A DNA stretch of 64,000 nt from a virus (IMGVR_UViG_3300024268_000035:1-64000), one strand, 5' to 3'; positions 11,802 through 46,922 are shown, numbered from the stretch's first letter. Made by a program: numbers and translations. Notes: generated by a model not told the origin, from the sequence alone.

Positions 11802-12303
11802 TTATTTCATTTAATACCGATTGCATATCATGTATCAATGATTGTGCATGGTTTAATTCCTCGTAAATTTCTTTTTCAAGATCTTCCTGACTACGGATCT
11901 TACGGAAAAGATCTGTGTCAATAAATGCTGTATGTAAAATCACACTGCCAGCAGCAAGTCCAGTACGTGAACCGAAATATACATTTCCATCTGGAGTCCA
12001 ACACAGTTTCAAACATCCATTTGACAGTGAGCCATTTTGGTGGTCATCTGTGTCATGAACAAAAATTGCACCTGCTGGAACTATACCTTCAAGATCCTTC
12101 TGTAATTCATAATAGTCATAGCGAGCATCCGAAAATGCTCTAATTCCGTCAGACATTCTGCACCTCCGAAGGTAAGGTGTCCTGCCCCATTTCAATAACG
12201 CCCGGAACACTGGTAGATCCGAAACCACCGTTACGAATACCATCTGCGTCATCGTCATATGTAATACCAAAGGGAATGAAGATGCCCTGAACAAAACCGT
12301 CAC
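11776..12303 (-). CDS. Hypothetical protein (true start probably at MSDGIRA)
   Basis: ORF between dut and the methyltransferase. Confidence 0.4.
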   Translation of the reverse strand: MTVLFRASSFPLVLHMTMTQMVFVTVVSDLPVFRALLKWGRTPYLRRCRMSDGIRAFSDARYDYYELQKDLEGIVPAGAIFVHDTDDHQNGSLSNGCLKLCWTPDGNVYFGSRTGLAAGSVILHTAFIDTDLFRKIRSQEDLEKEIYEELNHAQSLIHDMQSVLNEINDIIKSGL

Positions 12304-20900: not shown

Positions 20901-21387
20901 TCAGACGCTCATACAGCGGGTGTGAAATTTTCAGTTTGTTCAAAGGTGAAGCAAGACACGCACTGATCTTGATTACATTACTTGAAATTTTGAAAAACTC
21001 ACTGAATGAAATACGGGGTTTGTAATAGAAATGGTCATCTCTTGATGAAACACTGACAAGATCGTTCAGTTCCTGTAAACCGGCTTGATTCTTGGCAATC
21101 AGAATGGTGTGGTAGTTATCTCTCAGGCGACTTTCTTCACCAGTACGAGGATCTTTCCAGACAAATTGTTCCGTAAGGTAACACTCAACACCATGCAGAT
21201 ATTTAATGCCAGCCTTATCACAGCAGAGTTTTTTTGCAACCCACTGATAAACATTTCCATGTTCGGTAAAAGCAATTGCTTTCTGTCCGAGTTCGACTGC
21301 GCGATTTACATAGTCTTCAAATTTTGTTGTACTGTCAAGCAGGGATAATTCCGTATGCACATGGTATGCAGTATAGTTCTTATCCAC
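17947..21387 (-). CDS. dnaE: DNA polymerase III alpha subunit (family C)
   Basis: PHP HVH/TEHG, RGSCGGS, GDIDID, HPAG, KYDILGL, YQE, FGYNHS; GTG start after GGAGG. Confidence 0.95.
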   Translation of the reverse strand: MDKNYTAYHVHTELSLLDSTTKFEDYVNRAVELGQKAIAFTEHGNVYQWVAKKLCCDKAGIKYLHGVECYLTEQFVWKDPRTGEESRLRDNYHTILIAKNQAGLQELNDLVSVSSRDDHFYYKPRISFSEFFKISSNVIKISACLASPLNKLKISHPLYERLMTHYDYLEIQPHFHAEQISYNCHLAEMSQKYGIPLIAGTDTHSLDGYKAECRSVMQLAKHIEFEDEDSFDLTYKSYEELVQMFEKQGALPSKIYLEAIENTNRMADSVEDFKLDMSFKYPKLYGARDKEVFEETIKNNLLAKINDGAITQDQIPNFASAIQEECRVFDKIEMSGFMLFMSELVTWCKSNGIPIGFNRGSCGGSRVAYVTNTTDLNPETWHTVFSRFCNEDRKEIGDIDIDVSPSDRDKVYEYIINRFGQENTAFILAIGTIKSKGCIDEICRALGVRWNKEHQHDLKDLKEILKALKELDVEVTYGDARDNCATYYWDKKTNKLLFPSSMSGSPRAELIKRLSDEYDRIKAENEAIFAKNPWVGKIAVTIKDELSPIAEQAKEAGNPGTQKYRDFLLNHDGYKALAAKYPDVFYYFEGLLDVAISQSMHPAGIVASPLTLRNNYGTFISEGKEILQIDMDCVHEAGLVKYDILGLKNIEIIKDTYALIGKPYPKSHEIDWDDDAVWKDMLRSPIGIFQFESAFAFDSLRKFKTHSIYDMSLVTACIRPSGASYRDELLQRKPHTNPSPIIDDLLKDNLGYLIYQEDTIKFLQQICGLSGSEADNVRRAIGRKQKDRLDKALPSILEGYCSKSSQPRDVAEKEAKEFIQIIEDSSNYQFGYNHSIGYCMIGYLCAYLRYYYPAEFITAYLNNANNEDDIKNGSALAELYGIQIVPPRYGLSKDKYVYDAERGVIAKGIESIKYLNKDVANELYRISKTYKPQSFMELLKLMSAETSLDTRQRDILVKIDYFMDFGNIPELSRIIAMFNYFKDGTAKKIPKSKLDGLIYDLVSLYSTDKNKDGSEAKSFTITDMDGLLLECEATIKALNLPDLDLKCKIQSQLELMGYIDLTTNDPDDRRKLLISDVYPMNSKDKGTVWGYAIQTRSIGSGKTARLTIRANLFDKNPIRRFDIIMAKELEKNRSGYWYLLDYEKIG

Positions 21388-23356
21388 TGTGTCCACCTCC
21401 GTTTTGAATCTGACCAAAGATTTCGTCTTCTTCATTATTTAACTGCTTAGGAGGATATGGCAACCCTCCCGTGTGTTGATGCTTGTCCCACGAATATCTT
21501 CTGTCAAGGTCAAATTCATTGGTGAAGAATCTGCGGGAAGGCTGATCGTAGAACACACCTACGCTTCGTCCTTCAAAACCCATCATTCTGTCTTTCAGAA
21601 TATCGATCAGCACATCTTCCTTAATGGGTTTAGTAACCCATCCGGATCCGTTCAATTTCGGAACACCCTGTTTATCAGTTTCCGAAACACGATAGAGGCT
21701 GATGATACGATGAGCAAGGTCAATAATCGCTGAAATACCTTGTACATCCATCTTATTCAGACGGCGCATTGTGTCAATCTTATGCGGATGAACAACCAAG
21801 AGAATAATCACATTAAACTTGACTGCAAACGAGATAAGCTGCATGATAAGTTCGCTCTGCTTACTGTATTTATTGTCATCACTGCATTCAAGATTGATTG
21901 CGGTAAGGTTATCAAGAATCAGGAGCTTTGTTCCATACTTTCGTACAGAATCTTCCATTGTTGTCAGAAGATCCGTCATACGATTGGAACGTCCATCTTC
22001 GTATATGTAAAGCCTGCCACGATAAAAGTCTTCGATTTCTTTTTTCGCTTCGGGACGAACCTTATAATAGGTAGAGTCTTCGTAGTGCTTTTCTTCGATA
22101 TTTCGCTGACCTGCGAGTACCGAATTCAGCCAGTTTTTTGTCTGGAAGTTGGGAAGCTCTCCTGAGAACAGGAATACGTTTTTATCCTGTTCAAGTGATT
22201 GACAGATGATCTGATTGATGAAGGAACTCTTGCCTGCACCGTTAATACCGGTGATGATATTAAGCGTTCCCTGAAACAGCTTCATTAGATATCTGTCAAG
22301 AGGTTTTATACCGGTTGTTACACCGTCAATCTGATCCAAGTCAACATCCTGAATATCCGAGAAGTCAATTACTCCCGGAACGGGACTGTCTTTGGCGTTC
22401 AGAATAATTTCAAGAACTGTCTCTTTACCGAAATAGTAAAGCACTTCGTTAAGGTCGTTGACAGGAATTGTTTTACCGTCTGGTTTTTGATAGAACTTTG
22501 GAACATCAACCACTTTGGTTCGCCAGCTTCCAAGACGGTAAACAACTTCCTTTTGCATCTTTATTCCGGCTTCGTCATTATCCGAACACACGATTATGCT
22601 GTCAAACTGTTCAAGCCAATCCCAGTTTTCTTCGATCCAATGATAATTTGAACTTCCGAGAGGGACGGATACAACATTACTGAATCCGGATTCTATGGCT
22701 GACAAACAGTCCGGTTCTCCTTCGCAGATCAATAAGGGAGAAGTAACATTGATACGGTTCATATTGAATAACAGATTGCTTGTATCTGCATTTTTCTGAC
22801 ACCAGCACTTGTTTTCACCCTTACGAACTTTACGCGCGGGACGGTATTTCACCATTGTCAGCACATCGTTTGTGTCGTAGTAGTTCCAAGCGATATTACC
22901 ATCTTCGTCCTGTCTTACGTCGGCATAATCCAGTGTTTGAGGACTGATACACCGTGCTTTGAAGTATGAATAGATTTTGGATTTATCGCCTAATGGTACT
23001 TCTTTGGGGTATCTGTATTGATGCTTTGTTTTCACGCCAAGCTCACCAAAGCTGTATTTGATTCCAGCTAAATCAAACAACTTTTGGCAAGCCTGCAAAT
23101 AAGTCATGCCCTTATATATGAATACATCCAAAATGTCGTAGTTCTTCGCACACGCGCCAAAGCAGTGGAATGAATACGTCTTTTTGTTGTAGATAAATGA
23201 TGCGTGGTCTTCTTGATGGAAGGGGCAACAGCATCTAAGATTCTGTTCATCAAAGTCATGAATGTCCAATTCCTGAGCAATGATAAGCGCGTTTTCGTCG
23301 CCAAGCTTTTCTTTTGCTTCAAGAATAATATCACGATCAATTTGCAGTTTACTCAC
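21380..23356 (-). CDS. Primase-helicase (zinc finger + TOPRIM + SF4 helicase)
   Basis: CPFH...HCFGAC, EGEPD, DNDEAG, GINGAGKS, ILDNL. Confidence 0.9.
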   Translation of the reverse strand: MSKLQIDRDIILEAKEKLGDENALIIAQELDIHDFDEQNLRCCCPFHQEDHASFIYNKKTYSFHCFGACAKNYDILDVFIYKGMTYLQACQKLFDLAGIKYSFGELGVKTKHQYRYPKEVPLGDKSKIYSYFKARCISPQTLDYADVRQDEDGNIAWNYYDTNDVLTMVKYRPARKVRKGENKCWCQKNADTSNLLFNMNRINVTSPLLICEGEPDCLSAIESGFSNVVSVPLGSSNYHWIEENWDWLEQFDSIIVCSDNDEAGIKMQKEVVYRLGSWRTKVVDVPKFYQKPDGKTIPVNDLNEVLYYFGKETVLEIILNAKDSPVPGVIDFSDIQDVDLDQIDGVTTGIKPLDRYLMKLFQGTLNIITGINGAGKSSFINQIICQSLEQDKNVFLFSGELPNFQTKNWLNSVLAGQRNIEEKHYEDSTYYKVRPEAKKEIEDFYRGRLYIYEDGRSNRMTDLLTTMEDSVRKYGTKLLILDNLTAINLECSDDNKYSKQSELIMQLISFAVKFNVIILLVVHPHKIDTMRRLNKMDVQGISAIIDLAHRIISLYRVSETDKQGVPKLNGSGWVTKPIKEDVLIDILKDRMMGFEGRSVGVFYDQPSRRFFTNEFDLDRRYSWDKHQHTGGLPYPPKQLNNEEDEIFGQIQNGGGHSG

Positions 23357-23361
23357 CCCTT

Positions 23362-24132
23362 TCAGAACATTTTACTGAACTCGCACTCCTTACACATATC
23401 ACATAGATAGCTGCACCGCCAATACTCTGGTTTCGGTTCCCAAGTGTCATTGCGGGTTATCAATTCAATTTCATTTCCTGCCCACTGTTCTACTTCCTGA
23501 AACCTTTTCAAATTGAATGGCTCCTGAATCATAGTTTGTGATCGGAAACAGTTGAATTCCAGCACATCCGGAAAGCGGTCAAATTTCTGTTTTACTGCTG
23601 CGGAATATACATAGAGTTGTCTGAGATAATCGTCAAGTTCCGCATCTGACTTTGTTTTCTTTGATCTGTTGGAACGGGGTTTAAGTGTTCTGGACTTATG
23701 GTCAGTAATAACAAGCTGGCTATCATCACTGATAACGTCAATAAACCCCATCCACGGTTTTCCTGCGAACATGAATTCTACACTTTCTTCAACTCCAATT
23801 ATCTTGCGATTTGGAAAATTGATTTTGTCCAGATAGTAGAATCCCTGCTTGAAATAGTTGGTATATATCTTATGATTCGGAGCTTTTGAGCGAACATTTT
23901 CTGCGAAGTGAGAAACATAATACGTAGAAAGTTCGCTCTTTTTTAATACGCCGGAAAGGTACATCTGCATGATGAGATGTATGTAGCTTCCGTACTCAGC
24001 GAAGAAACCGCTATGTTTAGGAAGCCGTCTTCCGTTTTTATCACGATATAAATATGTAAGAAACCATTTATACGGACATTCTGAAAATGAAGTCAGGCGC
24101 GAATAACTCCAAGTCATATCGTTAATGGTCAA
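23362..24132 (-). CDS. PD-(D/E)xK / Cas4-like nuclease
   Basis: SYSRL..F..CPY, GFID, DHKS, QL..Y, C-terminal Cys cluster. Confidence 0.85.
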   Translation of the reverse strand: MTINDMTWSYSRLTSFSECPYKWFLTYLYRDKNGRRLPKHSGFFAEYGSYIHLIMQMYLSGVLKKSELSTYYVSHFAENVRSKAPNHKIYTNYFKQGFYYLDKINFPNRKIIGVEESVEFMFAGKPWMGFIDVISDDSQLVITDHKSRTLKPRSNRSKKTKSDAELDDYLRQLYVYSAAVKQKFDRFPDVLEFNCFRSQTMIQEPFNLKRFQEVEQWAGNEIELITRNDTWEPKPEYWRCSYLCDMCKECEFSKMF

Positions 24133-35993: not shown

Positions 35994-36253
35994 CCCGGAA
36001 TTACATCGCCTTCGCCGATACCAATGTAAGCATTTAATACAGCTATAGCTTCTGGATTATAAATATACTTGGTTTTATCCAACAGCAAATCCCGTATCTG
36101 AGAGATTGTAAAATCGGGATGCTCTTCATGAATGATAACAAGGAAGTCATTTGTTGCTGTTGTAGAACCGGCGACCTTCCTGATTTTCTTTCCTTTGGGT
36201 CTTATATGCGGATAATAACTTATATCTGTGTGACCTTTAGGATATTTCGGCAT
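35984..36253 (-). CDS. Hypothetical protein
   Basis: Operonic ORF. Confidence 0.5.
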   Translation of the reverse strand: MPKYPKGHTDISYYPHIRPKGKKIRKVAGSTTATNDFLVIIHEEHPDFTISQIRDLLLDKTKYIYNPEAIAVLNAYIGIGEGDVIPGWM

Positions 36254-37329
36254 TACACAGTTTTCTCCGTACTGTCACAAATTACAATTTGAGGACGAAT
36301 CGGACATCCGCCCATACACGAAAGACGTTTACTACATCCGGGACAAGCTGTATGGAAGTGGTTGCGGAAGTCTTCAAACTGTTCGCTGTTCCATGCGTTC
36401 TGAATAGTATCATTGGAAATGTCGTATGCCCAGCGAAGTTCCTGATTGTCGAAGGAGCAGGGGAGAGCTTTCATATCGCTTGTGATATACATACTCCATC
36501 TGCCGACCTCACAGGTATCTACACTGTCGTTGTCGATATTTTCTGTGAAATTCAATACAGCCGGAATAGAGCAGGAGTCAAAGCCGATTTTGAAATTGAA
36601 CTGCTGTGTATCAACAATACTGAAAAACTCTTTTACTCTGGGATCATTGACCTTCAGCACGTTGGATTCGCTTCCAAGTCCAACCGGCTTGTGTAAAAGG
36701 AAGATAACAGCATTGATTCCTGTTGGGAAATCATTCGTTTTCAGACGGCGAATGGCTTCATCAATAGAATTGTCACCGAGAACATAGTGAACATTGGTTT
36801 TTACCCCGGCATCCAGAAGCATTTGAATAGCGCGGATGGTATGTTCCTGACGATACCACGAAATTGCAACGGCTCCGCAATATCTTTTACAGAGCTGCAC
36901 AATCTGGTCAGTGAAACCAAGACCGGAACTGGTAAAGTTGGGCACGATGTCGTTTTCGCGGCAGTATGCGAGGATTTCTTCAAAGTTTTCATGCTGATCC
37001 ACGTCGCCGCGTCCACCAAGAGCAAGCTGGAAGGTTTTGCCCTTGCATTCATCCACGATACGCTTGAAGTTTTCAAGTGTCATGTTAGGATGTTTTGTTT
37101 TTAAGCCGTTTTGGTAGCACTGAACACCGGATTTAATACAAAGTCCACTGGATCCGTGGACGCAGTGTCCCATAACACCTACGTCAATCAACTCCGGATA
37201 AGAAGTCATAAATGGATCTACACCGGTATCTTTGCCATCTTCATCGAGAATGCCGCTTCTTGCATAGAAACCAGTCTTCGGATTAAACATGGATACGAAG
37301 TGATTTCTGCGGTCAATTTTTGTAATCAT
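36253..37329 (-). CDS. Radical SAM enzyme with SPASM domain and non-canonical Cys spacing
   Basis: CVHGSSGLCIKSGVQCYQ (CX7CX6C), ALGGRGD, TCEVG...PCSF, CPGC...CMGGCP. Confidence 0.85.
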   Translation of the reverse strand: MITKIDRRNHFVSMFNPKTGFYARSGILDEDGKDTGVDPFMTSYPELIDVGVMGHCVHGSSGLCIKSGVQCYQNGLKTKHPNMTLENFKRIVDECKGKTFQLALGGRGDVDQHENFEEILAYCRENDIVPNFTSSGLGFTDQIVQLCKRYCGAVAISWYRQEHTIRAIQMLLDAGVKTNVHYVLGDNSIDEAIRRLKTNDFPTGINAVIFLLHKPVGLGSESNVLKVNDPRVKEFFSIVDTQQFNFKIGFDSCSIPAVLNFTENIDNDSVDTCEVGRWSMYITSDMKALPCSFDNQELRWAYDISNDTIQNAWNSEQFEDFRNHFHTACPGCSKRLSCMGGCPIRPQIVICDSTEKTV

Positions 37330-37359: not shown

Positions 37360-37866
37360 TTATTCAGCCGAATTTTCAGTGTATTCCAGTGAATTATTTA
37401 TGTTGGACTGCCTGTCTTTTGCTTTTTGTACTTGCAGCTTATCCGCTAAGTCATAGAATTTGTGTGGGAGAGGGAGAATTGTTATCAGACGGTTATCACG
37501 AAACAAATAGACATAGCGGTGATATATCCGCATATTGTTTGCGTTACCGTTTGAAAGATACAGTCCATCCAGATACCGTTTAAGACCCGCTTTGCATTCT
37601 GCATGAGTAATACCGAATTCCAATGCTTTTTGAGCATTTTTGTCTGCAATCTTTTTACTTAGCCCAACACGGTCTTTGGTACGTTTGATACTATGGTTTG
37701 TCATAATTACATCACTCATCGTATCCATCATTATCTTCCTCGCAAACACATCTGTAATCCGGAAATTGCTTCTTCCATTGAACGAATGCGCCCCCGAAGC
37801 GAATCGATTGTTTCTTGGATTTCTGTTACATCCTGAGCGATATAGTATCCCTTTGCATTGGAGCAA
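37360..37866 (-). CDS. Hypothetical protein (true start probably at MMDTM)
   Basis: TNHS.KR..DR pattern. Confidence 0.45.
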   Translation of the reverse strand: MLQCKGILYRSGCNRNPRNNRFASGAHSFNGRSNFRITDVFARKIMMDTMSDVIMTNHSIKRTKDRVGLSKKIADKNAQKALEFGITHAECKAGLKRYLDGLYLSNGNANNMRIYHRYVYLFRDNRLITILPLPHKFYDLADKLQVQKAKDRQSNINNSLEYTENSAE

Positions 37867-38066
37867 ATGGGATCGCCATTGTTTCTGGCATGATTGATGA
37901 GTTTTCTGACTTCTACCCCTGAGACACCAAGTCCCGCTGCGATAGCAGAGCCGCAGATTGGATTATGTCTGCCGTCAGAATGAGTCATGATATACTTTGT
38001 AATGGGATCCATAAGCACCTTCCATGTGCAAAAATATAGCGGCGGAACCGAAATCCCGCCGCACAA
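37731..38066 (-). CDS. Winged-HTH protein
   Basis: IAAGLGVSGVEVRKLINHAR..G.PICS...GYY. Confidence 0.65.
   Translation of the reverse strand: MCGGISVPPLYFCTWKVLMDPITKYIMTHSDGRHNPICGSAIAAGLGVSGVEVRKLINHARNNGDPICSNAKGYYIAQDVTEIQETIDSLRGRIRSMEEAISGLQMCLRGR
38039..38062 (-). terminator. Putative intrinsic terminator after the TROVE-like gene
   Basis: GCGGCGG/CCGCCGC hairpin followed by TATATTTTT on the minus strand. Confidence 0.55.
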
Positions 38067-38071
38067 AATGT

Positions 38072-39622
38072 TTAGATATTCTTCAGAACCTCACCAATGG
38101 GAGCATAACGATCAGTGTTCAGAGTTTCCAGCAGACATTCATAAGGATCAGTTTTTCCACTCATAACAAGTTTTACGATGTTTGTGCTGAATCCGCTGAC
38201 AAGAGCAACGCCCATATCATTTTCAATAACAGGGATTGTTGCTGTACGACTATTTACATTCCAGAATACAAGGCGGGGGAGCTTGTAACCGGCATTTTCA
38301 TAACGCTGAGAAATAATCTCGAACAGACGAGCGTTGGGACGATTACGATTCCATCTGTCAGAGGATCTGCCGCAAGTAGCACAGCTATCAAATTCCATGT
38401 CGGAGATGATAAGGATATTCTGAGGAATATCTTCCTGTGCCATGTTGTTATGGACGGCTGTATCCAAAATCAGATCGAATACCGCTTCGATATTGGTGTT
38501 TGCAACTTCATTGTGTGCGAGAGCAATCTGAAGTTTGTCACGAAGGTTCTTGCCTCTGCTCAGATCTACCAATTTCGGAGATTCCGAGAAGGTAATGTAG
38601 TTGTTTTTGAACTGACCAGAAGATCTTTCGGCGAAATAGATTGCAAGTGCGTTGGCTACACTCAATGCGCTAACGCTGGATCCGCCAACGGTACTTGTCA
38701 TACTTCCACTTCCATCAGCGACAACGATAGTATTTCCGCAGCCTGCTACAGTATCGGGAAGGGAATCCCACATTGCTTCCAGTGCAGAATCAACGATACC
38801 CTTCACATTGTAGCTGTTCGACATATACTTATGTACAATATCGTGCGGATACAGTGTTCCGGCGTTGATTTTTGTTTCACCCTTTTCCAGTCTGGAAAGG
38901 TAATTGCGGCGACGTTCTTCATCGTTGCGAAGGAAGGCTGAATTGTAGATCAAGTTTGCACGGGAAGGAACAGTTTCATAAATGATTTCGTTCCAATGCT
39001 TTGCGGACATCTTCTTTTCCACCACATTCAGCTTGGTACGCAGTCTGGAAAGAGCTTTGCGATAGTCGCGTTCTGTAACCCCCATATGCTTATAAATAAG
39101 CTTTGCATAACGCTTGGTTTCCTTAGAAGAGGCGTTTACAGAAGGAAGCCACTTTGCCAGAAGGGAAATGCTGCCATTCTTTTTAAGATTCTGAATATCC
39201 TGTGTAAGCTGAACGGAAACAAGGTCAAGTACGTTTATCTGAAGGTTGGTATCCAGCAGACACCACAGATCATCATAACGTCCATATTCAGGAATCAGGT
39301 TCAGAAGGGGGATGATGTATTCCGGATTGTGTTCAGCCATATTGGAAAGGATGATTCTGAACAAACGACGTTCACCAAGACCACCACGGATATCTCTTGC
39401 GAAAAACAGCCACTTCATTGCTGTCACCTTGTCTTCAAAGAAAGCCTTAGTGAATCGTTTGGCAATATCGTCCGGGGATGCGGAACGAAGAGATGCAACG
39501 GCGAAGTTCAGATCCAACAGTTCTTTACCAGTGGTACGATATCCCATAGCACCATTTTCGGTCATAGAGTAATTGTTATCTGCGAGCATGGTTTTCTTCA
39601 TGTTTGAAACAAAGTTACTCAT
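38072..39622 (-). CDS. TROVE/Ro60-like helical protein with C-terminal vWA domain (DUF2828-like)
   Basis: TENGA, ARDIRGGLGER, YGRYDDL, AKWLPS, MIDAS DGSGS, ISDMEFD, VFWNV, VSGFS. Confidence 0.85.
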   Translation of the reverse strand: MSNFVSNMKKTMLADNNYSMTENGAMGYRTTGKELLDLNFAVASLRSASPDDIAKRFTKAFFEDKVTAMKWLFFARDIRGGLGERRLFRIILSNMAEHNPEYIIPLLNLIPEYGRYDDLWCLLDTNLQINVLDLVSVQLTQDIQNLKKNGSISLLAKWLPSVNASSKETKRYAKLIYKHMGVTERDYRKALSRLRTKLNVVEKKMSAKHWNEIIYETVPSRANLIYNSAFLRNDEERRRNYLSRLEKGETKINAGTLYPHDIVHKYMSNSYNVKGIVDSALEAMWDSLPDTVAGCGNTIVVADGSGSMTSTVGGSSVSALSVANALAIYFAERSSGQFKNNYITFSESPKLVDLSRGKNLRDKLQIALAHNEVANTNIEAVFDLILDTAVHNNMAQEDIPQNILIISDMEFDSCATCGRSSDRWNRNRPNARLFEIISQRYENAGYKLPRLVFWNVNSRTATIPVIENDMGVALVSGFSTNIVKLVMSGKTDPYECLLETLNTDRYAPIGEVLKNI

Positions 39623-39677
39623 TGTTTAATTCCTCCTTGGTTTGTTTAGTTAATTTCTAAAGTGTTTGTTTATCCTC

Positions 39678-39791
39678 AAGACACACAAAGAACGCGCAGA
39701 AGTGTGGAGTCGAACCATCATCACTGTTTTCAGTTGTCCTAAACCAATTAGACGAACCTCTGCTACTATGTAACATTGCTGATCGTGTCTT
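39678..39791 (-). ncRNA. Y-RNA-like element: terminal stem + TCAGCAAT enclosing a tRNA-like domain
   Basis: AAGACAC/GTGTCTT outer stem; inner GCAGAGG/CTTCTGC stem, TAATTGG D-like loop, GGTTCGACTCC T-loop. Confidence 0.65.
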
Positions 39792-39802
39792 TAAGGAGGG
39801 AA

Positions 39803-39915
39803 ACGGTGGGCAGGAATCGAACCTGCGCTTGCAGCTTGGATTTTTACATTGCTGTCAGTGAACCTTACGGATCACACGAAGGGGAGCCGCCGTCTTCCCG
39901 CTTGACTACCACCGT
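39803..39915 (-). ncRNA. tRNA-like RNA with the anticodon loop replaced by hairpin+ACAGCAAT
   Basis: ACGGTGG/CCACCGT acceptor, D-arm, GCGGCT/AGCTGC stem, GCAGG-TTCGATT-CCTGC. Confidence 0.7.
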
Positions 39916-39920
39916 ATGTG

Positions 39921-40037
39921 CGTCAGGGGTGGGACTCGAACCCACGACCTCGGGTTTAACAGACCTTGAATAAATTTGCTGTAAATGTCTCACACAAGAC
40001 ATATTATACGCGCTCTATCCAACTGAGCTACCCTGAC
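39921..40037 (-). ncRNA. tRNA-Asn(GTT)-like RNA interrupted by a 43-nt insert
   Basis: Removing 39966-40008 gives a complete cloverleaf with CGGGT-CTGTTAA-ACCCG. Confidence 0.75.
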
Positions 40038-40044
40038 ATTTGAC

Positions 40045-40115
40045 TCGTGCAACCGGAATCGAACCGATATTTACCAATCGCATCCACAGTGTACTTTTGC
40101 AGGTGTTACGCACGA
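40045..40115 (-). ncRNA. Degenerate tRNA-like element (acceptor + T arm) with a CCTGCAA variant motif
   Basis: TCGTGCG/TGCACGA, ATCGG-TTCGATT-CCGGT. Confidence 0.45.
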
Positions 40116-40238
40116 ATATTGAATCGGATTCATCGGTTTTTCCGAAATGCTGAAATCTGGCAAGTGAATTTCAAGCACGACCCTTATCCGATATGGGTCA
40201 GCAGAAAGGAGTTATATGAAGCGTATTATGTACGCTGA

Positions 40239-40357
40239 AGCGGAAGGAAGGAATCGAACCTTCGACACGTGAACCCATTTCAAAGAACATTGCTGTTAAT
40301 GTCAGCATACGCGACACCATATCTTTTTCATTGCTCTGCCGACTGAGCTACTTCCGC
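40239..40357 (-). ncRNA. tRNA-like RNA with an expanded anticodon loop carrying hairpin+ACAGCAAT
   Basis: GCGGAAG/CTTCCGC, GCTC-AGTCGGCA-GAGC, GAAGG-TTCGATT-CCTTC. Confidence 0.7.
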
Positions 40358-40374
40358 ATAATGACGGCTGATTG

Positions 40375-40488
40375 TGGGAACTGTGGAATCGAACCACAAG
40401 CATAAGATGTACCAGATCTCAAAGGTAAATTTGCTGTTAGTGTACGCCGTCCGTTACACTTTATAACGCTGCCTCCCAGACGTTCCCA
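40375..40488 (-). ncRNA. tRNA-like RNA (GGT anticodon arm) with hairpin+ACAGCAAAT inserted 5' of the anticodon arm
   Basis: TGGGAAC/GTTCCCA, GAGAT-CTGGTAC-ATCTT, TGTGG-TTCGATT-CCACA. Confidence 0.6.
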
Positions 40489-40495
40489 GAATAAA

Positions 40496-40578
40496 TGCCG
40501 GAGAAGGGACTTGAACCCATACGCGCTACGCGCATCAGGGCTTAAACCTGATGTGTCTGCCAATTACACCACACCGGC
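40496..40578 (-). tRNA. tRNA-Leu(TAA)
   Basis: Cloverleaf, TCAGG-TTTAAGC-CCTGA, long variable arm. Confidence 0.88.
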
Positions 40579-40583
40579 ATATC

Positions 40584-40725
40584 AAGCAAGGTATGGGCTA
40601 TTCTCCCATACAATAGATGGTCTATTTTGTATCTTACGACAAACAGGCAGGAGGGAGGTTGAAAAGAGAAGGGAGGTTCAGTTATTGTTTGTCGTTTGAT
40701 AGGCTTTCTCTTTGCCTACTTGCTT
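40584..40725 (-). ncRNA. Multi-stem candidate sRNA with two CCTCC anti-SD motifs
   Basis: Outer AAGCAAG/CTTGCTT stem, four internal helices, AACCTCCC twice. Confidence 0.45.
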
Positions 40726-40749
40726 TTAAGTTTCCAAAGGAATACTTGA

Positions 40750-40837
40750 CGGAGCAGACAGGACTCGAACCTGCACATCCTTACGAATTACTGACGGTTT
40801 AGCAAACCGCTGCCTTACCAATTAGGCTTACTGCTCC
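40750..40837 (-). tRNA. tRNA-Ser(GCT)
   Basis: Cloverleaf, GCGGT-TTGCTAA-ACCGT, long variable arm. Confidence 0.9.
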
Positions 40838-40861
40838 ACATGAGAAGCAAAGCTTCTCTGT

Positions 40862-40920
40862 AAAACGCTTTCGATAATCAGTCGATGAATGGCGATTAGT
40901 GATATTGCTGTAAGCGTCTT
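40862..40920 (-). ncRNA. Minimal stem+ACAGCAAT unit
   Basis: AAGACGC-TT-ACAGCAAT...GCGTTTT. Confidence 0.6.
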
Positions 40921-40931
40921 TATTTTTTGTC

Positions 40932-40989
40932 ACGGCACATATACATTCATAACCCCAAATTATGCGTATCAAATTGCTGTAAGTGCCGT
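40932..40989 (-). ncRNA. Minimal stem+ACAGCAAT unit
   Basis: ACGGCAC-TT-ACAGCAAT...GTGCCGT. Confidence 0.6.
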
Positions 40990-41012
40990 TGTGTTGTTCA
41001 GAGTTTTAAGCT

Positions 41013-42596
41013 TTAACCTTCCACAGTCTTAAAGAACACATCTGTACGGCGGTTCTTTTCACTGTCTTGTGCGGAAGGGTCTACGATCATTTTTGTATTG
41101 CCGTTACCAACAACGATAATACGATTTACATCAATGCCATTCGCCACGAAGAAATTCTTTACGGTCTTGGCACGTTCTTCGGAGAGCTTACGTCCGGCAT
41201 CAGTATCATCATAAGAATTGATGTTACCTTCGATCTGAATTACAGTGCCGTCCAGAGTTTTTGCGATTTCCACGAATTCACTGAGAGTTGCATTTGCTTC
41301 TGCATTGTCAAGGAACTTTGCGGTATTGATGACAAAGTTTACGGTTGCAGACTTGGAAAGCAGTGCCTGTGCATTCTTAATGGATTCCTTCTGTTCTTCT
41401 GTGATCTCAAAGGCTTCCTTCTCTGTGATAGAAGAATAATTATCGGAAAGCGTCTTGATATAGGAAGTATCGAACAGGGTTGCTCCAAGGGTTCTGTCTA
41501 CAGTTTCACCGATGCTTTCCCAGATGGTACACATATCAGCATAAACAGTGGGGCAGTCATTTTCCAGAGCGGAGAGATTTTCTGAATATCCCATCAGACC
41601 GGCATCGCCGCACATGGAGAGGATTTCTTCATCAGAAGAGTCAGCGAACATGGGCATAACCTTACGGATGTATTCAAACTCAGTGGTGTACATATCTTCG
41701 GCTTGGAAGATACCATCAATAAACTTGGACACTACATCCGGATGTGCCGATGCGAAATCGGAACGGAAGAGGATACCGTCCATGATGAGTTTGTTGGAAG
41801 CGGTAGTGTCAAACAAAATGTGAGAATTGGTACTGTTTTCGGCGTTGGAAAGATACGGCTGCCATGTTGCTGCAACATCAAGGCTTCCGGCAAAGAACGC
41901 CTGACCAGTTTGTTCTGCGTCTTCCAGCAGAATAAGGTTGTCGATGATCTTCTGCTTATCTGCGTCGGGGAGGTCTGATTTATTGACAAACCAGATAACA
42001 AGAGACTGGGCTTCACTGAATTTGGGAACACCAATCTTGGCATCTACGAGACTTTCGATGGATTTGAACTTGCTGAGTGCGATGATGCCATCACCACCGT
42101 CAGAGAAGTTAGTGTACACAGGAATTACTACATCCAAACCGGCATCGGTGAACTTTCCGGAAAGGAATGCTGTACGGTTGAGAGTATATCCGGCTGCGTT
42201 AAGATCACCCTTAATCAGCGCATTACTGGATGCTTCTGCATCGTTGATAATATTGATATTGACGGTGATTCCAAGTTTATCAAAAATGGAACCGGGCTGA
42301 GTGGTCAAACCACCATTTGCGTCGATGATCGGCTTCCAACCAATCCATTCATCCAGTGAAAGATTGATAGTCGGATCTGCGGTATCCGTCTTGTTTACTG
42401 CGGGAGTGTTTGAAGTCTTATTGTCAGTATCGGATGTGCCGATAATGGAGTCCAATGTATCGCTTCCGAAACTGGGGATAAGATCGGGCTTATGTTCTTC
42501 AATGTAGCGATAGCCGAAGAATCCGGCGACACAGAGAATAGCGATGATGATTACGAACAGGACGACGCGACCAGCGGTGGTCAACTTGAGTTTCAT
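41013..42596 (-). CDS. Membrane-anchored ABC substrate-binding protein (NMT1/SsuA-like) with C-terminal OmpA-like domain
   Basis: TM helix, SDGGDGI, ATWQPY, LSEERAKTV, NRRTD. Confidence 0.85.
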   Translation of the reverse strand: MKLKLTTAGRVVLFVIIIAILCVAGFFGYRYIEEHKPDLIPSFGSDTLDSIIGTSDTDNKTSNTPAVNKTDTADPTINLSLDEWIGWKPIIDANGGLTTQPGSIFDKLGITVNINIINDAEASSNALIKGDLNAAGYTLNRTAFLSGKFTDAGLDVVIPVYTNFSDGGDGIIALSKFKSIESLVDAKIGVPKFSEAQSLVIWFVNKSDLPDADKQKIIDNLILLEDAEQTGQAFFAGSLDVAATWQPYLSNAENSTNSHILFDTTASNKLIMDGILFRSDFASAHPDVVSKFIDGIFQAEDMYTTEFEYIRKVMPMFADSSDEEILSMCGDAGLMGYSENLSALENDCPTVYADMCTIWESIGETVDRTLGATLFDTSYIKTLSDNYSSITEKEAFEITEEQKESIKNAQALLSKSATVNFVINTAKFLDNAEANATLSEFVEIAKTLDGTVIQIEGNINSYDDTDAGRKLSEERAKTVKNFFVANGIDVNRIIVVGNGNTKMIVDPSAQDSEKNRRTDVFFKTVEG

Positions 42597-43342
42597 TACT
42601 TAGATCCTCCATATTTCTTTTTGAGATTTTCAAGATATTCGTCATTGGCGAGTTTGGCTGCTTGCTGTTCGGCGCGTTCCACCTTGGTGGAGGTACGGTT
42701 TTCATGAACAATCCGTGCGCCGTCCACTTCCTTCTTCAAGTCACTGGAACCTTCCATGACGGAATCCAGAAGTTTCTTGGTGGCTGTATCCTTTTTGAGT
42801 TCATCCAGATCTCCGAGGATGTCTTTGAGCTGGTCGTTCATACGCATTCCGTTGACGGTTTCTTTCTTGAGACGCTGAGTTTCACGAAGTTTCTTGCCGA
42901 GTGTGTCGTATATCTGCGTAGCATCAGCTACCATCGGCTTCAGACGAGCGATACACTCCCTCTTTTGTGCGAGTTCCGTCATGAGTTCTGAACGGCTTTC
43001 AGCATAGATTTCAGCTTCCTTCATCTTGCCGTTCCTTACAAGGTTTTCACAAGCGGCTTCCGCTTCCTTGATTTTGTTTTCAAGAATTTTGGCGGCATCT
43101 TCCGCGTGTTTCAATTCTCCTGAAAGTTTGTTTAATGTATCGGAAGCGCGGTTGTATTTTGCGCGAATTTCTTCGATTGCTTCACTAAAGATTGCCGCCG
43201 CGCCTTCAGGAGTTTTGGCGGCATCTTCAACGAAAACATTCAGAAATCCGCTGACAAGTACCTTTAACTTCTTGCGGACTTCCGGGAAGAGAATAAGAGC
43301 GAGAAGGATAATAGCAAGGATAATTCCGAGAATGATTTTCAC
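42596..43342 (-). CDS. PspA/IM30-like coiled-coil protein with N-terminal TM segment
   Basis: Hydrophobic N-terminus, long heptad region. Confidence 0.65.
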   Translation of the reverse strand: MKIILGIILAIILLALILFPEVRKKLKVLVSGFLNVFVEDAAKTPEGAAAIFSEAIEEIRAKYNRASDTLNKLSGELKHAEDAAKILENKIKEAEAACENLVRNGKMKEAEIYAESRSELMTELAQKRECIARLKPMVADATQIYDTLGKKLRETQRLKKETVNGMRMNDQLKDILGDLDELKKDTATKKLLDSVMEGSSDLKKEVDGARIVHENRTSTKVERAEQQAAKLANDEYLENLKKKYGGSK

Positions 43343-43932
43343 TTGGATTCCTCCATTCCTTTACAGAATTCTATGAGATTTGTGATGGACTTTACCTCAT
43401 CTGTAATAGAGGACTGAGCGGCAGAAATGATATCTTCTGCTTCCTTGATCTTGATGTTGGCAGATTCGATTGCCTGTTTCAGTGCTTCAATATCCATCTT
43501 GGCGATTTCGATTTCTGCTGTACGTTCTCTGGTAATCTTAGATTCTGCAGCTTTCAGCATCGACATTCTGGTATCACCATCAGAAAGCAGTGTTTCTACC
43601 TTGATACCAGACACCGCCAGAATTCCGGCGATAGTAGCCTGTTTTGTTGCCGTAGGCATTTCCGGCGGGAGCGTTGCGATAAGAGCCTGTACGGTAAAGA
43701 TAGAATTTGTCTTATCTGACAGGTCATTTTGATCGTAGATTTCGTCGATAATATTTGCAGGAGACTCGATATCCGCATCAACTGCAATCGGGACTTCTTC
43801 TGTCGGTTCTTCCTGTACGGGAACAGGTACGGTAGTCTCCGCTTTATCGTCTTCAAATACGATAAGCTTCTTTAATAATCCCATTTTCTTTCCTTTCCTT
43901 TCCTTTATGAGAGCTTGATTATATGTTCGCAC
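43339..43932 (-). CDS. Coiled-coil hypothetical protein
   Basis: Operonic ORF, likely start at MGLLKK. Confidence 0.55.
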   Translation of the reverse strand: MRTYNQALIKERKGKKMGLLKKLIVFEDDKAETTVPVPVQEEPTEEVPIAVDADIESPANIIDEIYDQNDLSDKTNSIFTVQALIATLPPEMPTATKQATIAGILAVSGIKVETLLSDGDTRMSMLKAAESKITRERTAEIEIAKMDIEALKQAIESANIKIKEAEDIISAAQSSITDEVKSITNLIEFCKGMEESK

Positions 43933-44492
43933 ATCCTCACAGCTTCCTCTTCGCTGTGTGTTACCATGAGGATTGTGTTTGCGGTTTCATGATGGACTTC
44001 CATGATAAGGTTCTGCATCTTTGTTCTGGTTACATCATCCAGTGCGGAAAGCGGTTCGTCCATCAGCAGGTATGTAGGCTTGACAAACAGGACTCTGGCA
44101 AGAGCCAATCTTTGCTGCATACCGCCGGAGAGTTCCGTTGGATATCGATCAAGATAATCACCAAGACCAACTTCTTGCAGGATTCGCTCTGCTGTTGGAA
44201 CAAGTGACTTGCGTTTGCTGCGAGTTCTTTCAGCAATCAGGATGTTGTCTCTGCAGGAAAGCCAATCGAAATTGGTGTATCTCTGGTGCATCATATAGAT
44301 AAGCTGTCTGTCTTTTCTGATGATTTCGCCTGAGAGTGGTTTATGCAGTCCAGCAATGGTTTTCAGCAATGTGCTTTTTCCACAGCCAGATTTTCCGAGT
44401 ATTCCGTAAATCTTCCCATTCTCAAATGTGAAATTCAACGGATCGGTGAGAGGGTGATCGTACCCAACCGATAGATTATTCAATGTTATCAT
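43905..44492 (-). CDS. ABC transporter ATPase (TauB/SsuB-like)
   Basis: GKSGCGKST, LSGGMQQR, LLMDEP, VTH. Confidence 0.93.
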   Translation of the reverse strand: MITLNNLSVGYDHPLTDPLNFTFENGKIYGILGKSGCGKSTLLKTIAGLHKPLSGEIIRKDRQLIYMMHQRYTNFDWLSCRDNILIAERTRSKRKSLVPTAERILQEVGLGDYLDRYPTELSGGMQQRLALARVLFVKPTYLLMDEPLSALDDVTRTKMQNLIMEVHHETANTILMVTHSEEEAVRMCEHIIKLS

Positions 44493-45249
44493 CTTTGTAT
44501 CTCCACTGAAATGTTTTCCGGATCAGCATCTTTCCGATACGATCAAACAGATAACTGAACACCACAATCGTGAGGATTGCTGCAAACACAATGGCGGTTT
44601 TACCTCTGGCGGCTCCTACATTGATGATGAAGCCAAGACCTTTTATGGCGTTCACTTCTTCCACAACAGCAACATACGTCCATCCGATTCCATACATCAT
44701 CAGGAACGAATTCATAATAGAGGGCAGTGCGGCTGGCAAAAGAATTTCTGCAATAATTTCATGTGGTCGCATTCCGATTGACTTCCCGGTATCAATCAGA
44801 TCCTGCGGCACATCTTCCATGCACAGTATGGTTGATGGGAGAAGATACACAAAGGTTGCAAGGAACAGAAACGAAATTTTCATAGTCTCATCTATTCCAA
44901 ACCACAGGATCAGAAGGGGCGAAAATGCTGTAACTGGAATGTACCTCATTGCAGATACGATTGGTGTGATCGCATCTTTAACAGGTTTTACTGCACAAAT
45001 CAGTAATGCAAGGGGAATTGCTACTGCCATCGACAGAATGGCGGACACAGATATACGAGCGAAAGAGTAAAGCAAACCGGGAAGTAGTTGATTGGTTTTA
45101 ATAAGTCCAACCAATGCAGATACAACGGATAACGGGGAGGGGATAAAGAGCGGCGTTGTCATGGCGGATCCAATCTGCCATATTATCAGAAGAATAATAA
45201 CTCCCATTGTTTTCTTCAAGATATTGCAGCCGCTTTTACCGCCGAGCAT
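44476..45249 (-). CDS. ABC transporter permease (TauC/SsuC-like)
   Basis: Multiple TM helices, RYIP, LWFGIDE, GWTYVAVVE. Confidence 0.9.
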   Translation of the reverse strand: MLGGKSGCNILKKTMGVIILLIIWQIGSAMTTPLFIPSPLSVVSALVGLIKTNQLLPGLLYSFARISVSAILSMAVAIPLALLICAVKPVKDAITPIVSAMRYIPVTAFSPLLILWFGIDETMKISFLFLATFVYLLPSTILCMEDVPQDLIDTGKSIGMRPHEIIAEILLPAALPSIMNSFLMMYGIGWTYVAVVEEVNAIKGLGFIINVGAARGKTAIVFAAILTIVVFSYLFDRIGKMLIRKTFQWRYKDDNIE

Positions 45250-45971: not shown

Positions 45972-46922
45972 TTATCTTGTCGGGAAGAAGTAATCCACAA
46001 ACTTTCGATAAGACTGTAAGCGTTTATTTGCCACAGAAACATTGATGTATTTTTCGTTAAAAACCTTGCTGATAGTTTCCATATCACCTTGACGGATTGT
46101 TCCGTTTGCACATTCATACAGATACGCTCTGTGATATATCCCAGACCAATATACCTTATCATAATGGAATAGGTTAGCGTCCTGATCCGGGTCGCTTTTA
46201 CCGAAATTCCTTATAAAGATTCGCATGACCTTAGGTTCTTCTATTCTTGCGGATCTTACGGTTCGTAAAAGATAACTGGATTCGACATATTTCAGAGTGA
46301 TTATTCCTCTGGCAGAAGATCTATATTCGGTGGCATCCTTATACTCAGTCAAAAAACTCATGATTTTCTGGTTTGGGTATATGTTTTTGTTTCCAACAAC
46401 AATATGATCGTCCTTGACATCCGATTTCAACATGGCGATAGCATCTTCTAATTGAACTCCACACCATGCCATATAGATAGCGGCAATTTGTGTAGCAAAA
46501 ATAGCATCATCTATTCTATCTGCTGCGTCCAAAGTTGCATCAATGGCATTCTGCAATTCCTGAAAGTTCTTGAAAAAGTTTGCTTCGTAGACCTGACTTG
46601 TATCAATATCGTCATATTTTATAGATACGAGCAGTTCAATGTTGTCTTCGTTTACGATACCGTATTTCAAAAGGAACTCAAGGTATTTTTTGATACGGCT
46701 TTTGTCTGCAAGGAAACCTTGAATATTGCTTGTGTTCAGATCGGAGATCAGACGAATGAACTCATCTTTGGTATAGCCTTGTTCCAAGGTTTTTTGGTAT
46801 TTTTGTTCAAAGCGATGCAGGCGCATCCAGAAATTTTGAACCGTTCGTGCAGATGCTTCGGAATGTGCATTTCCGTTCAGAAGCTTTTCGATATAAAGGT
46901 CACGGTAACTACTGTTATCCAC
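45972..46922 (-). CDS. Tyrosine-recombinase-fold repressor, SPbeta MrpR/YopR-like
   Basis: AIYMAWCGV...AMLKSDV and VYWSGI motifs, no catalytic Arg; GTG start after GGAGG. Confidence 0.6.
   Translation of the reverse strand: MDNSSYRDLYIEKLLNGNAHSEASARTVQNFWMRLHRFEQKYQKTLEQGYTKDEFIRLISDLNTSNIQGFLADKSRIKKYLEFLLKYGIVNEDNIELLVSIKYDDIDTSQVYEANFFKNFQELQNAIDATLDAADRIDDAIFATQIAAIYMAWCGVQLEDAIAMLKSDVKDDHIVVGNKNIYPNQKIMSFLTEYKDATEYRSSARGIITLKYVESSYLLRTVRSARIEEPKVMRIFIRNFGKSDPDQDANLFHYDKVYWSGIYHRAYLYECANGTIRQGDMETISKVFNEKYINVSVANKRLQSYRKFVDYFFPTR

Follow-up and report, generated by a model that had tools for sequence, protein, structure and literature searches.

A predicted Ro60-like protein of the DUF2828/DUF7788 family and its upstream tRNA-chimeric RNAs: a candidate second Ro60/Y-RNA-type particle in phages

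The Ro60 protein and its Y RNAs constitute a classic RNA-surveillance particle, which is also a human autoantigen. In bacteria, Y RNAs include a domain that resembles transfer RNA (tRNA), the purpose of which is, to our knowledge, still unknown. Ro60 orthologs are accompanied by tRNA-mimicking Y RNAs encoded within 4 kb and on the same strand (Chen et al. 2014, PMC4201824). Phages are part of this picture: the Ro60 protein of Thermus phage phiLo binds two upstream Y-like RNAs, Yrl1 and Yrl2, in electrophoretic mobility-shift assays (EMSA) and forms a complex with the PNPase of the host (PMC12135203), and a review on jumbo phages mentions, in general terms only, ROT/TROVE proteins with "a tRNA-like partner" (PMC7824862). 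Here we describe a locus of comparable outline in a stretch of viral DNA of 64,000 nucleotides (IMGVR_UViG_3300024268_000035:1-64000, hereafter the window), in which a gene of the DUF2828/DUF7788 family is preceded by seven small RNAs that share one structural module. This module, which we call the handle, consists of a 7-bp helix of free sequence, followed by 2 nt and then by a single-stranded ACAGCAA. The handle is found with a covarying helix, it co-occurs with the gene at the scale of whole genomes and it carries tRNA-shaped cargo; the Ro60-like fold of the protein is predicted from a structural model. We propose, with a probability of roughly 0.75, that this locus encodes a second Ro60/Y-RNA-type particle, in which a DUF2828/DUF7788 ring has the seven upstream handle RNAs as its partners and displays tRNA mimics.

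The protein beside known Ro60 proteins

The gene (38072..39622, minus strand), preceded by a strong ribosome-binding site, encodes a 516-aa protein composed of a DUF2828 N-terminal helical part and a DUF7788 von Willebrand factor A (vWA) domain with a full metal ion-dependent adhesion site (MIDAS) motif. Its family assignment rests on Pfam matches to DUF7788 (PF25043; E 1e-45, 156.1 bits against a cut-off of 27.1) and DUF2828 (PF11443; 2.5e-36, 125.9 bits against a cut-off of 29), and on a match to PHROG 850, 'RNA-binding protein', at 2.6e-140 and 469 bits. The DUF2828/DUF7788 family counts 7079 clusters at 50% identity (E<=0.001) and is present in 701 of ~50,700 phage records; according to the literature, DUF2828 is annotated also in plant and other eukaryotic genomes.

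A sequence-only reading of this stretch, which preceded our analysis, had likened the protein to TROVE/Ro60 and suggested a comparison of its predicted structure with Ro60. The AlphaFold2 model, built from 116 homologs (pLDDT, the per-residue confidence, 93.7; pTM, the predicted template-modelling score, 0.93), bears out this resemblance. It shows a helical-repeat ring followed by the vWA domain, which is the arrangement of Ro60/TROVE proteins, and in a Foldseek search of the PDB ranks 1-13 are all occupied by Ro60/TROVE structures, Ro60-RNA complexes included. The best structural matches are metazoan Ro60 structures (PDB 1yvp, 1yvr, 2i91), with a full-length template-modelling score of 0.60-0.61 to Xenopus Ro60 both with and without RNA; human Ro60, Deinococcus Rsr and the phiLo Ro60 (PDB 9l5y and 9kop) are also among these thirteen. 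The MIDAS (DxSxS...T...D), a feature shared with the vWA domain of metazoan Ro60, is invariant among the 116 homologs at D303, S305, S307, T376 and D408.

At the level of sequence the relationship is far more distant. The Pfam TROVE family (PF05731) gave no match even at E<=10, vWA_Ro60 (PF25045) matched below its cut-off (16.1 bits versus 27.7, E 0.011), and phmmer with the 516-aa protein against the PDB did not find Ro60. A profile of the family, searched against the PDB, returned only Ro60/TROVE chains, at E 0.016 and over the start of the vWA domain. Identity to solved Ro60 proteins is ~12-16% (12-13% to the metazoan ones). Most likely, on the basis of the predicted model, the protein is a Ro60-type ring, that is, a helical-repeat toroid with a vWA/MIDAS domain, that belongs to a separate sequence family, DUF2828/DUF7788.

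The handle module and the seven RNAs

The 1.39 kb upstream of the gene contains no convincing open reading frame (ORF), and all parts of the array are oriented like the gene, on the minus strand. In 39776-40980 we counted seven minus-strand copies of WCAGCAA (W being A or T) and zero plus-strand copies, with ~0.2 expected from shuffles of the window (~21.6 matches per 128 kb of strand). The seven copies listed in the sequence-only reading, together with the context it gave for them, are thus all present. In every copy, the 7 nt that precede the 2-nt spacer have a complementary partner strand, which can lie on either side. In RNA1, RNA2 and RNA7 the partner lies 35, 36 and 91 nt downstream, respectively, so that the helix is made by the two ends of the RNA and encloses the cargo. 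In RNA3, RNA4, RNA5 and RNA6 it lies just upstream, so that the helix is a capped hairpin and the tRNA body is joined on the ACAGCAA side. Locally the two arrangements are identical: an A-rich AAAU precedes the GYG strand, while the CRC strand runs into NN-ACAGCAA and a U-rich stretch, which usually follows the heptamer. Since they share one local structure, the enclosing and capped forms are circular permutations of each other. Cargo is always found on the ACAGCAA side, in the form of an anticodon-arm-like hairpin, a tRNA-like domain, or a whole tRNA connected through its anticodon stem. We also considered an inner helix, in which the U-rich stretch that follows ACAGCAA would pair with the AAAU ahead of the 3′ strand, and rejected it, as pairing was at most 56% at any offset.

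That helix sequences differ while pairing is kept, as first noticed in the seven copies, holds well beyond the window. A perfect 7/7 helix in an allowed geometry accompanies 55 of the 97 distinct, unselected ACAGCAA sites on the gene strand of 15 loci, compared with 11.4% at 12,000 random positions (binomial p = 4e-27); on the opposite strand there are only 8 sites. In 33 enclosing-type RNAs, which had been preselected for pairing, all 6 modelled pairs covary and 100% of the cells are paired; in 79 further matches of a covariance model, R1, 99.5% of the cells are paired and CAGCA is invariant in 79/79. The covariance test proposed for helix plus ACAGCAA therefore came out in favor of the element, both in alignments and in model matches. 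The R1 search favors short cargos, hence handles that are capped or carry long cargos are under-counted. The proposed helix end, NNC(A/G)(C/T), describes the copies of the window but not those of distant phages, where AUC, AGC, CAA, CGU, CCC or CGG is read at this place; with the helix end free to vary, the conserved part is the shape of the helix plus ACAGCAA. In two other loci (L011:3404-3521 and L014:444-561), tRNA chimeras carry ACUGCAA instead of ACAGCAA behind a hairpin (GGUUUA/UAAACC in L011), which may be a variant handle. One R1 match in the window, at 46034-46081 on the minus strand (E 0.027), lies inside a 343-aa ORF and was judged to be due to chance.

Clustering, and a short core that is identical among the copies, would be expected of recent local duplications with no common function. 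This origin is refuted by the comparative data and retains practically no probability: outside the 7-mer the sequences are unrelated, their helices differ yet remain paired, each array copy has its own ortholog in related phages, and the same module recurs in phages of three bacterial phyla.

The seven RNAs, located 56-1367 nt upstream of the gene, fall into the three topologies already recognized from the sequence, namely free-standing stems, handles grafted into tRNA bodies, and a handle enclosing a tRNA-like domain. RNA1 (40932..40989) and RNA2 (40862..40920), 58-59 nt long, are the free-standing ones. In the minimum free energy (MFE) fold of RNA1, the handle ACGGCAC/GUGCCGU, with UU and ACAGCAA, surrounds a hairpin of 5 bp that is closed by the 7-nt loop UUUGGGG (R1 37.8 bits, E 1.9e-07); this hairpin resembles an anticodon arm and is kept in the orthologs of two relatives, L003 and L004, with the loop UUUGGGU. 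RNA2 has the handle AAGACGC/GCGUUUU, again with UU and ACAGCAA, around a hairpin UCGA/UCGA with the loop CUGAUUA (R1 35.6 bits, E 7.5e-07), and its orthologs carry a hairpin with a 7-nt loop (CUUGAAA) at the same site. RNA7 (39678..39791), whose 3′ end lies 55 nt before the start codon and for which the sequence-only reading had suggested a possible autoregulatory role, is built on the same plan with a larger cargo. Its handle AAGACAC/GUGUCUU, with GA and UCAGCAA, pairs 7/7 and joins both ends in the MFE fold, enclosing a domain made of an acceptor-like stem GCAGAGG/CUUCUGC, a D-like arm, a short CUG-AAAA-CAG hairpin in the place of a truncated anticodon arm, and a T arm; its low R1 score (17.3 bits, E 0.068) reflects the penalty on long cargos.

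The embedding of the remaining copies in tRNA bodies was also correctly perceived; what had been taken as one type of graft, though, turned out to be four different designs. RNA3 (40363..40488), as resolved in an alignment of 8 orthologs, resembles a tRNA in its 7-bp acceptor stem UGGGAAC/GUUCCCA, its T arm and an anticodon-like arm whose loop reads CUGGUAC; the capped handle hairpin GUGUA/UACAC, followed by UA and ACAGCAA, separates the D region from the anticodon arm. A pseudoknot joins six bases of the hairpin loop, GACGGC, to GCCGUC in the 3′ tail and is present in 8/8 orthologs, with compensatory changes to AUCGGC/GCCGAU, GGUGGC/GCCACC, CACGGC/GCCGUG and GAUGGC/GCCAUC. Because the MAFFT alignment misplaced the 3′ tail, this pairing was checked sequence by sequence and column counts were dropped. 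RNA4 (40239..40357) has a tRNA body with acceptor, D and T arms and a 5-bp anticodon stem, which scores 46.9 bits with the Rfam tRNA model, above the gathering score and with a 53-nt insert. In place of the anticodon loop it has an A-rich linker, then the capped handle hairpin GUGUCG/UGACAU, UA, ACAGCAA and ~16 nt, and 13/21 pairs show compensatory changes in an RNAalifold analysis of 7 orthologs. In RNA6 (39802..39915) the body consists of the acceptor ACGGUGG/CCACCGU, a 3-bp D stem, a 5-bp anticodon stem GCGGC/GCUGC and a T arm, and the anticodon loop has given way to a capped handle hairpin (GUGA/UCAC core) with UG, ACAGCAA and a tail ending in UCCAA. RNAalifold on 6 orthologs recovered all stems as well as a 7-bp handle hairpin, 12/29 pairs being compensatory. 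In RNA6 and its orthologs (L009:3799-3919, L008:3730-3847, L019:3529-3651, L004:3657-3771), a conserved (U/G)CCAA immediately precedes the 3′ strand of the anticodon stem; it resembles the 3′ half of a Gly (UCC/GCC) anticodon loop, except that there is no U33 before it.

RNA5 (39921..40037) consists of an entire tRNA-Asn(GUU) and a handle module of 43 nt, and is recognized by the Rfam tRNA model at 45.3 bits, above the gathering score, with a 56-nt insert. The module, UAUAAU followed by the hairpin AUGUCUU/GAGACAU, UU, ACAGCAA and AUUUAUUCAA, is inserted between nucleotides 28 and 29 of the anticodon stem and leaves the 7-nt anticodon loop CUGUUAA intact; once the module is taken out in silico, the cloverleaf is perfect. 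RNAalifold shows covariation in the handle hairpin as well as in the 3-bp lower stem. In the 8 orthologs parsed, insertion point and body are constant and the anticodon is GUU, UUU or UGU, with a discriminator base that is G in 3/4 GUU cases and A in all 4 UUU and UGU cases, a pattern that rests on only three or four independent lineages. This agrees with the known identity rules for Asn, Lys and Thr tRNAs.

RNA5 is also the RNA on which a different explanation could be built, namely that the handle is a short intron, or a mobile element inserted into tRNA genes, whose excision would yield functional tRNAs with the help of the DUF2828 protein as splicing cofactor or maturase. Such an explanation draws on the canonical tRNA-Asn(GUU), with its perfect 5-bp anticodon stem, that is restored when the 43-nt insert is taken out, on the constancy in all 8 orthologs of the insertion point (28/29) and of the insert's initial UA, and on the discriminator base that tracks the anticodon. 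It would, nevertheless, account for the RNA5 type only, as RNA4 and RNA6 have no anticodon loop to restore, and RNA1, RNA2 and RNA7 are free-standing with their cargo inside the helix. Moreover, the distal tRNA array of the window's phage already provides canonical tRNA-Asn, Thr, Lys, Gly and Pro, the phage encodes no RtcB ligase, and neither group I nor any other intron family of Rfam matched at E<=10. The inserts measure 42-56 nt, against ~200 nt or more for group I introns, and that of RNA5 lies in the stem, not in the anticodon loop. Metatranscriptome contigs carry the unspliced form only, a weak argument given that the libraries may contain DNA. Altogether, we hold the intron explanation to be improbable. 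The approach of finding 'spliceable' tRNAs by deletion followed by ARAGORN was discarded as too permissive, since it yields many different tRNAs per sequence, and explicit parsing was used in its place.

Taken as a group, RNA3-RNA7 all possess a T arm, and full acceptor, D and T arms covary in RNA4-RNA6. ARAGORN calls none of the seven RNAs as a tRNA, and the canonical anticodon arm of the Rfam family (RF00005) was not recovered in them. As for described RNA families, an Rfam 15 search, also proposed in the sequence-only reading, found no family that matches the handle elements. With the YrlA model (RF02553) the array reaches at best 16.0-17.8 bits against a gathering score of 69, and the best match in the whole genome, 23.4 bits, falls in the distal tRNA array; a single instance of the YrlA motif GNCGAAN0-1G is present in the 1.39 kb, at the junction between variable loop and T stem of RNA4, and is not kept in orthologs.

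These results delimit the relationship with the bacterial and mycobacteriophage Ro60 (Rsr)-YrlA system. Both have a vWA ring protein and several RNAs per locus, encoded on the same strand within a few kb (here and in four distant phages, RNAs are found within ~4 kb of the ring gene on its strand), and in both the RNAs join a protein-binding stem, here a putative one, to a tRNA-like domain with T and D arms. Unlike that system, the present one has a DUF2828/DUF7788 protein with no TROVE match, a putative recognition element made of helix, NN and ACAGCAA instead of GNCGAAN0-1G, and a modular cargo that extends from anticodon-arm hairpins to tRNA-like domains and complete tRNAs. In addition, its helix can be capped, so that the RNA ends as in a normal tRNA, and it has up to 12 copies per locus, besides distant ones. 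The phiLo system is likewise a phage-encoded Ro60-fold ring with upstream non-coding RNAs, bound by phiLo Ro60 in EMSA, but its protein is a canonical TROVE protein and its RNAs, which lack tRNA bodies, are chosen through a CGAA motif in a stem-bulge-stem (PMC12135203). Metazoan Ro60-Y RNA particles share with the phage locus a protein site (putative in our case) that consists of a conserved helix next to a bulge or loop; their Y RNAs, however, lack a tRNA body, and it is within the helix (GGUCCGA) that their conserved element is located, in contrast to the single-stranded heptamer beside the helix found here.

It could be argued that the locus is just a diverged member of the described Ro60/Rsr-YrlA system. 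Such a view is favored by the common outline, in which a Ro60-fold ring gene lies in a phage beside same-strand RNAs that bear T and D arms (PMC4201824, PMC12135203), and by the weak vWA_Ro60 match (E 0.011). Against it stand the missing TROVE match at E<=10, the ~12-16% identity, RNAs that score 16-18 bits where the YrlA gathering score is 69, and a GNCGAAN0-1G motif that is found a single time and is unconserved. Furthermore, phage ET08, which has a canonical TROVE protein, carries a YrlA-like match beside its Ro60 gene and no handle match in its whole 155-kb genome. We regard plain membership as very unlikely: the Ro60/YrlA parallel drawn in the sequence-only reading is apt as an analogy, but neither protein nor RNAs pass the tests of family membership. 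In other words, Ro60-fold rings with tRNA-mimicking partner RNAs are a known kind of system, while the protein family, the RNA tag, the two permuted topologies and the grafting onto complete tRNAs appear to be new, as none is described in Rfam 15 or in the literature that we found. In that literature there was no description of ACAGCAA RNAs, and the string ACAGCAA matched primers only.

Co-occurrence of gene and handle

The association between DUF2828 genes and handle RNAs, which the sequence-only reading had proposed to check across phage genomes, holds in both directions, from gene to RNA and from RNA to gene. Starting from the gene, all 18 related viral loci (53-79% protein identity) have 1 to 12 motif copies upstream on the gene strand, and the 49 model matches in 15 loci are all on that strand. 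The same is seen at larger evolutionary distance, in Bacillus phage MrDarsey (41% protein identity to the window protein), Listeria phage LP-048 (37%), E. coli phage wV8 (35%) and Mycobacterium phage Kingsolomon (34%). When the whole records of these four phages were searched, all matches at E<=0.01 fell within ~3 kb of the gene and on its strand, with none elsewhere in genomes of 70-165 kb; in three of the four, the gene lies at the edge of a tRNA array.

Starting from the RNA, an exact 14-base pattern (AGACACNNACAGCAAT) was scanned over 2.9 million viral contigs and gave 80 loci. Among the 37 matches with a 7/7 helix, a DUF2828 gene is present in the fetched piece in 17, always on the same strand, and, for 10 further helix-bearing matches of which the whole contig was checked, the gene was found elsewhere on the contig in 9, the exception being a fragment that is 80% complete. 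Overall, 26/27 helix-bearing matches tested have the gene on their contig. Matches devoid of the helix behave differently, with the gene in the piece in 2/43 and on the whole contig in 0/5, and these five gene-less contigs gave no model match (0/5). Gene-bearing contigs have 3-5 model matches each, sometimes 20-30 kb from the gene.

In an alternative explanation, helix plus ACAGCAA would direct the processing of phage tRNA operons or stabilize their RNA, and would be recognized by a factor of the host, for instance an RNase or chaperone, with DUF2828 simply a co-located tRNA-related gene. The elements do lie in or next to tRNA arrays, in the window as well as in wV8, MrDarsey, LP-048 and the distal array of the window's phage, and several are far from the gene. 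For this to be the case, though, one host factor would need to read an invariant heptamer in Firmicutes, Actinobacteria and Proteobacteria, and the element is found only where the phage gene is (26/27 helix-bearing matches versus 0/5 contigs without the gene). ET08, with 155 kb and a close relative, McGee, in which 31 tRNA genes are annotated (PMC9583779), has no handle. Besides, the element is built into tRNA bodies, at or beside the anticodon arm, which is not the position of a spacer signal. Therefore, we consider a host-read signal unlikely.

A number of observations weigh against the proposed particle. Handles can lie 20-45 kb from the gene. In the genome of the window's phage (G000), three handle RNAs are 45 kb off (85555-85614, 86216-86280 and 87548-87605), interleaved in the distal tRNA array, and similar distances are seen in three further contigs (G001, G002 and G004). 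In another one (G006, the contig of L065; 105.8 kb, 80% complete), six handle RNAs at 20331-23869 on the plus strand are present and the DUF2828 gene was not found; either the gene is in the missing part, or handles are able to exist without it. Co-occurrence would also fit a shared pathway without direct contact between protein and RNA. Part of the invariance of the motif is by construction, because model R1 was seeded with sequences containing ACAGCAA. Moreover, the reading of the small cargos as anticodon mimics is only partly borne out: a hairpin with a 7-nt loop is present in 76/103, and only 50% of those have a U at the U33 position. As regards expression, the contigs of one metatranscriptomic run span 37420-41198 almost evenly, and transcript ends, processing and splicing are not resolvable from contigs; a raw-read RNA run had no reads on the stretch, and two short 'joints' in metatranscriptome contigs are unrelated tRNAs sharing T and D arm sequence. 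Finally, in LP-048 genes for an RtcB-like ligase, an HD phosphohydrolase and a DUF1768 protein (L021:6852-8063) lie 1-3 kb downstream of the DUF2828 gene, but the window's phage lacks RtcB, and so do four further phages with handles, each at least 95% complete. Given these five absences, an obligatory link to RNA repair of the RtcB type is not supported and was dropped.

Setting of the locus, proposed function and significance

The window is part of a 101.5-kb viral contig, estimated to be 76% complete, the nearly complete sequence of which is present in metagenome runs of animal gut and faeces from several studies. Directly after the stop codon of the DUF2828 gene lies an intrinsic terminator (38039..38062, minus strand) with a 10-bp stem, 7 GC pairs and a T-rich tail, which probably ends a transcription unit made of RNA array and gene; a scan of the minus strand of the array for sigma-70 promoters gave zero candidates. 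Two ordinary tRNAs called by ARAGORN are located inside the array, both on the minus strand and in the same place in related loci: tRNA-Ser(GCU) at 40748..40838 (Rfam tRNA 56.1 bits) and tRNA-Leu(UAA) at 40495..40579 (51.2 bits). The 168-nt spacer between them (40580-40747) has an 8-bp stem GACAAACA/UGUUUGUC around a C/U-rich loop. Between RNA4 and RNA5, at 40038-40115 on the same strand, there is a tRNA-like piece without ACAGCAA, called tRNA by neither ARAGORN nor Rfam, with a 7-bp acceptor-type stem UCGUGCG/UGCACGA and the T arm AUCGG-UUCGAUU-CCGGU.

No protein-coding neighbor of the DUF2828 gene is conserved beyond close relatives, and the RNAs are its sole constant neighbors. About 0.7 kb downstream, a radical SAM/SPASM protein of 358 aa (36253-37329, minus strand) is kept in L003 and L004 only. 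On the other side of the array, a transporter-like gene set at 41013-45249 (minus strand), common to the relatives L003 and L019, encodes an ABC ATPase of 195 aa and a permease of 257 aa, together with a 527-aa fusion of a substrate-binding and an OmpA domain (phrog_25518) and two proteins of unassigned function. Beyond the window, the plus strand carries a ROOL RNA (Rfam RF03087, 384.6 bits) at L025:1434-2026, equivalent to G000:83433-84025, which is followed by a transfer-messenger RNA (L025:3060-3471) and 17 canonical tRNAs (L025:1340-6439).

How might the proposed particle operate? In the scheme that we favor, array and gene would be transcribed together up to the terminator behind the gene, and the tRNA-shaped units would then be cut out by host tRNA-processing enzymes. 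By analogy with Ro60, which binds the conserved helix of Y RNAs and takes up its non-coding partner on the outer surface of its ring, the phage protein would bind helix plus ACAGCAA, and the resulting particle would present tRNA or anticodon mimics to tRNA-recognizing proteins during infection. The RNAs may in this way bait or soak up anticodon nucleases, modification enzymes or synthetases, or tether them. A phage-host conflict over tRNAs is the most likely setting, and a plausible one in view of the tRNA-array context, of the anticodon switching among RNA5 orthologs and of the known anticodon nucleases and phage tRNAs (PMC11455837). Phage tRNAs are in fact described that evade or compensate for host anticodon nucleases, as in the case of T5 tRNA-Lys against the AriB nuclease of PARIS (PMC11455837; see also van den Berg et al. 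2023, cited there). What these tRNAs have in common with the RNAs of the locus is the phage tRNA-array setting; here the loops include Lys-UUU, Asn-GUU and Thr-UGU, and orthologs switch anticodon on a constant body. They differ in that they are ordinary tRNAs working in translation, whereas here tRNA or anticodon arm is fused to a handle and several RNAs have no anticodon loop at all.

A broader and much more tentative idea is that of a second widespread Ro/Y class working as a modular display system, in which any tRNA, tRNA-like domain or anticodon arm could be handle-tagged, in either permutation, and loaded onto the ring, as a programmable bait or sponge and an RNA-based anti-defense hub. 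The orthologs of RNA5, which re-aim the anticodon between Asn, Lys and Thr together with the discriminator, suggest such a programmable bait or sponge, directed at host tRNA-targeting defenses or at aminoacyl-tRNA synthetases. As DUF2828 is annotated in eukaryotic genomes, hitherto unknown partner RNAs might exist there too.

On the practical side, many small RNAs and 'odd tRNAs' that tRNA finders missed or miscalled in phage genomes can now be annotated, and the 16-nt handle could be used as a portable tag by which RNAs are loaded onto a defined protein. With respect to Ro60 and the Y RNAs, the locus would represent a parallel system, based on a different protein family and on a different, very simple RNA tag. 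The family reaches well-studied phages of Listeria, Staphylococcus, Salmonella/E. coli (Felix O1-like), Campylobacter, Bacillus and Mycobacterium. Joined as it is to whole tRNAs as well as to anticodon arms, the tag ties Ro-type rings to tRNA biology, a connection that can be tested in easily handled phage-host pairs.

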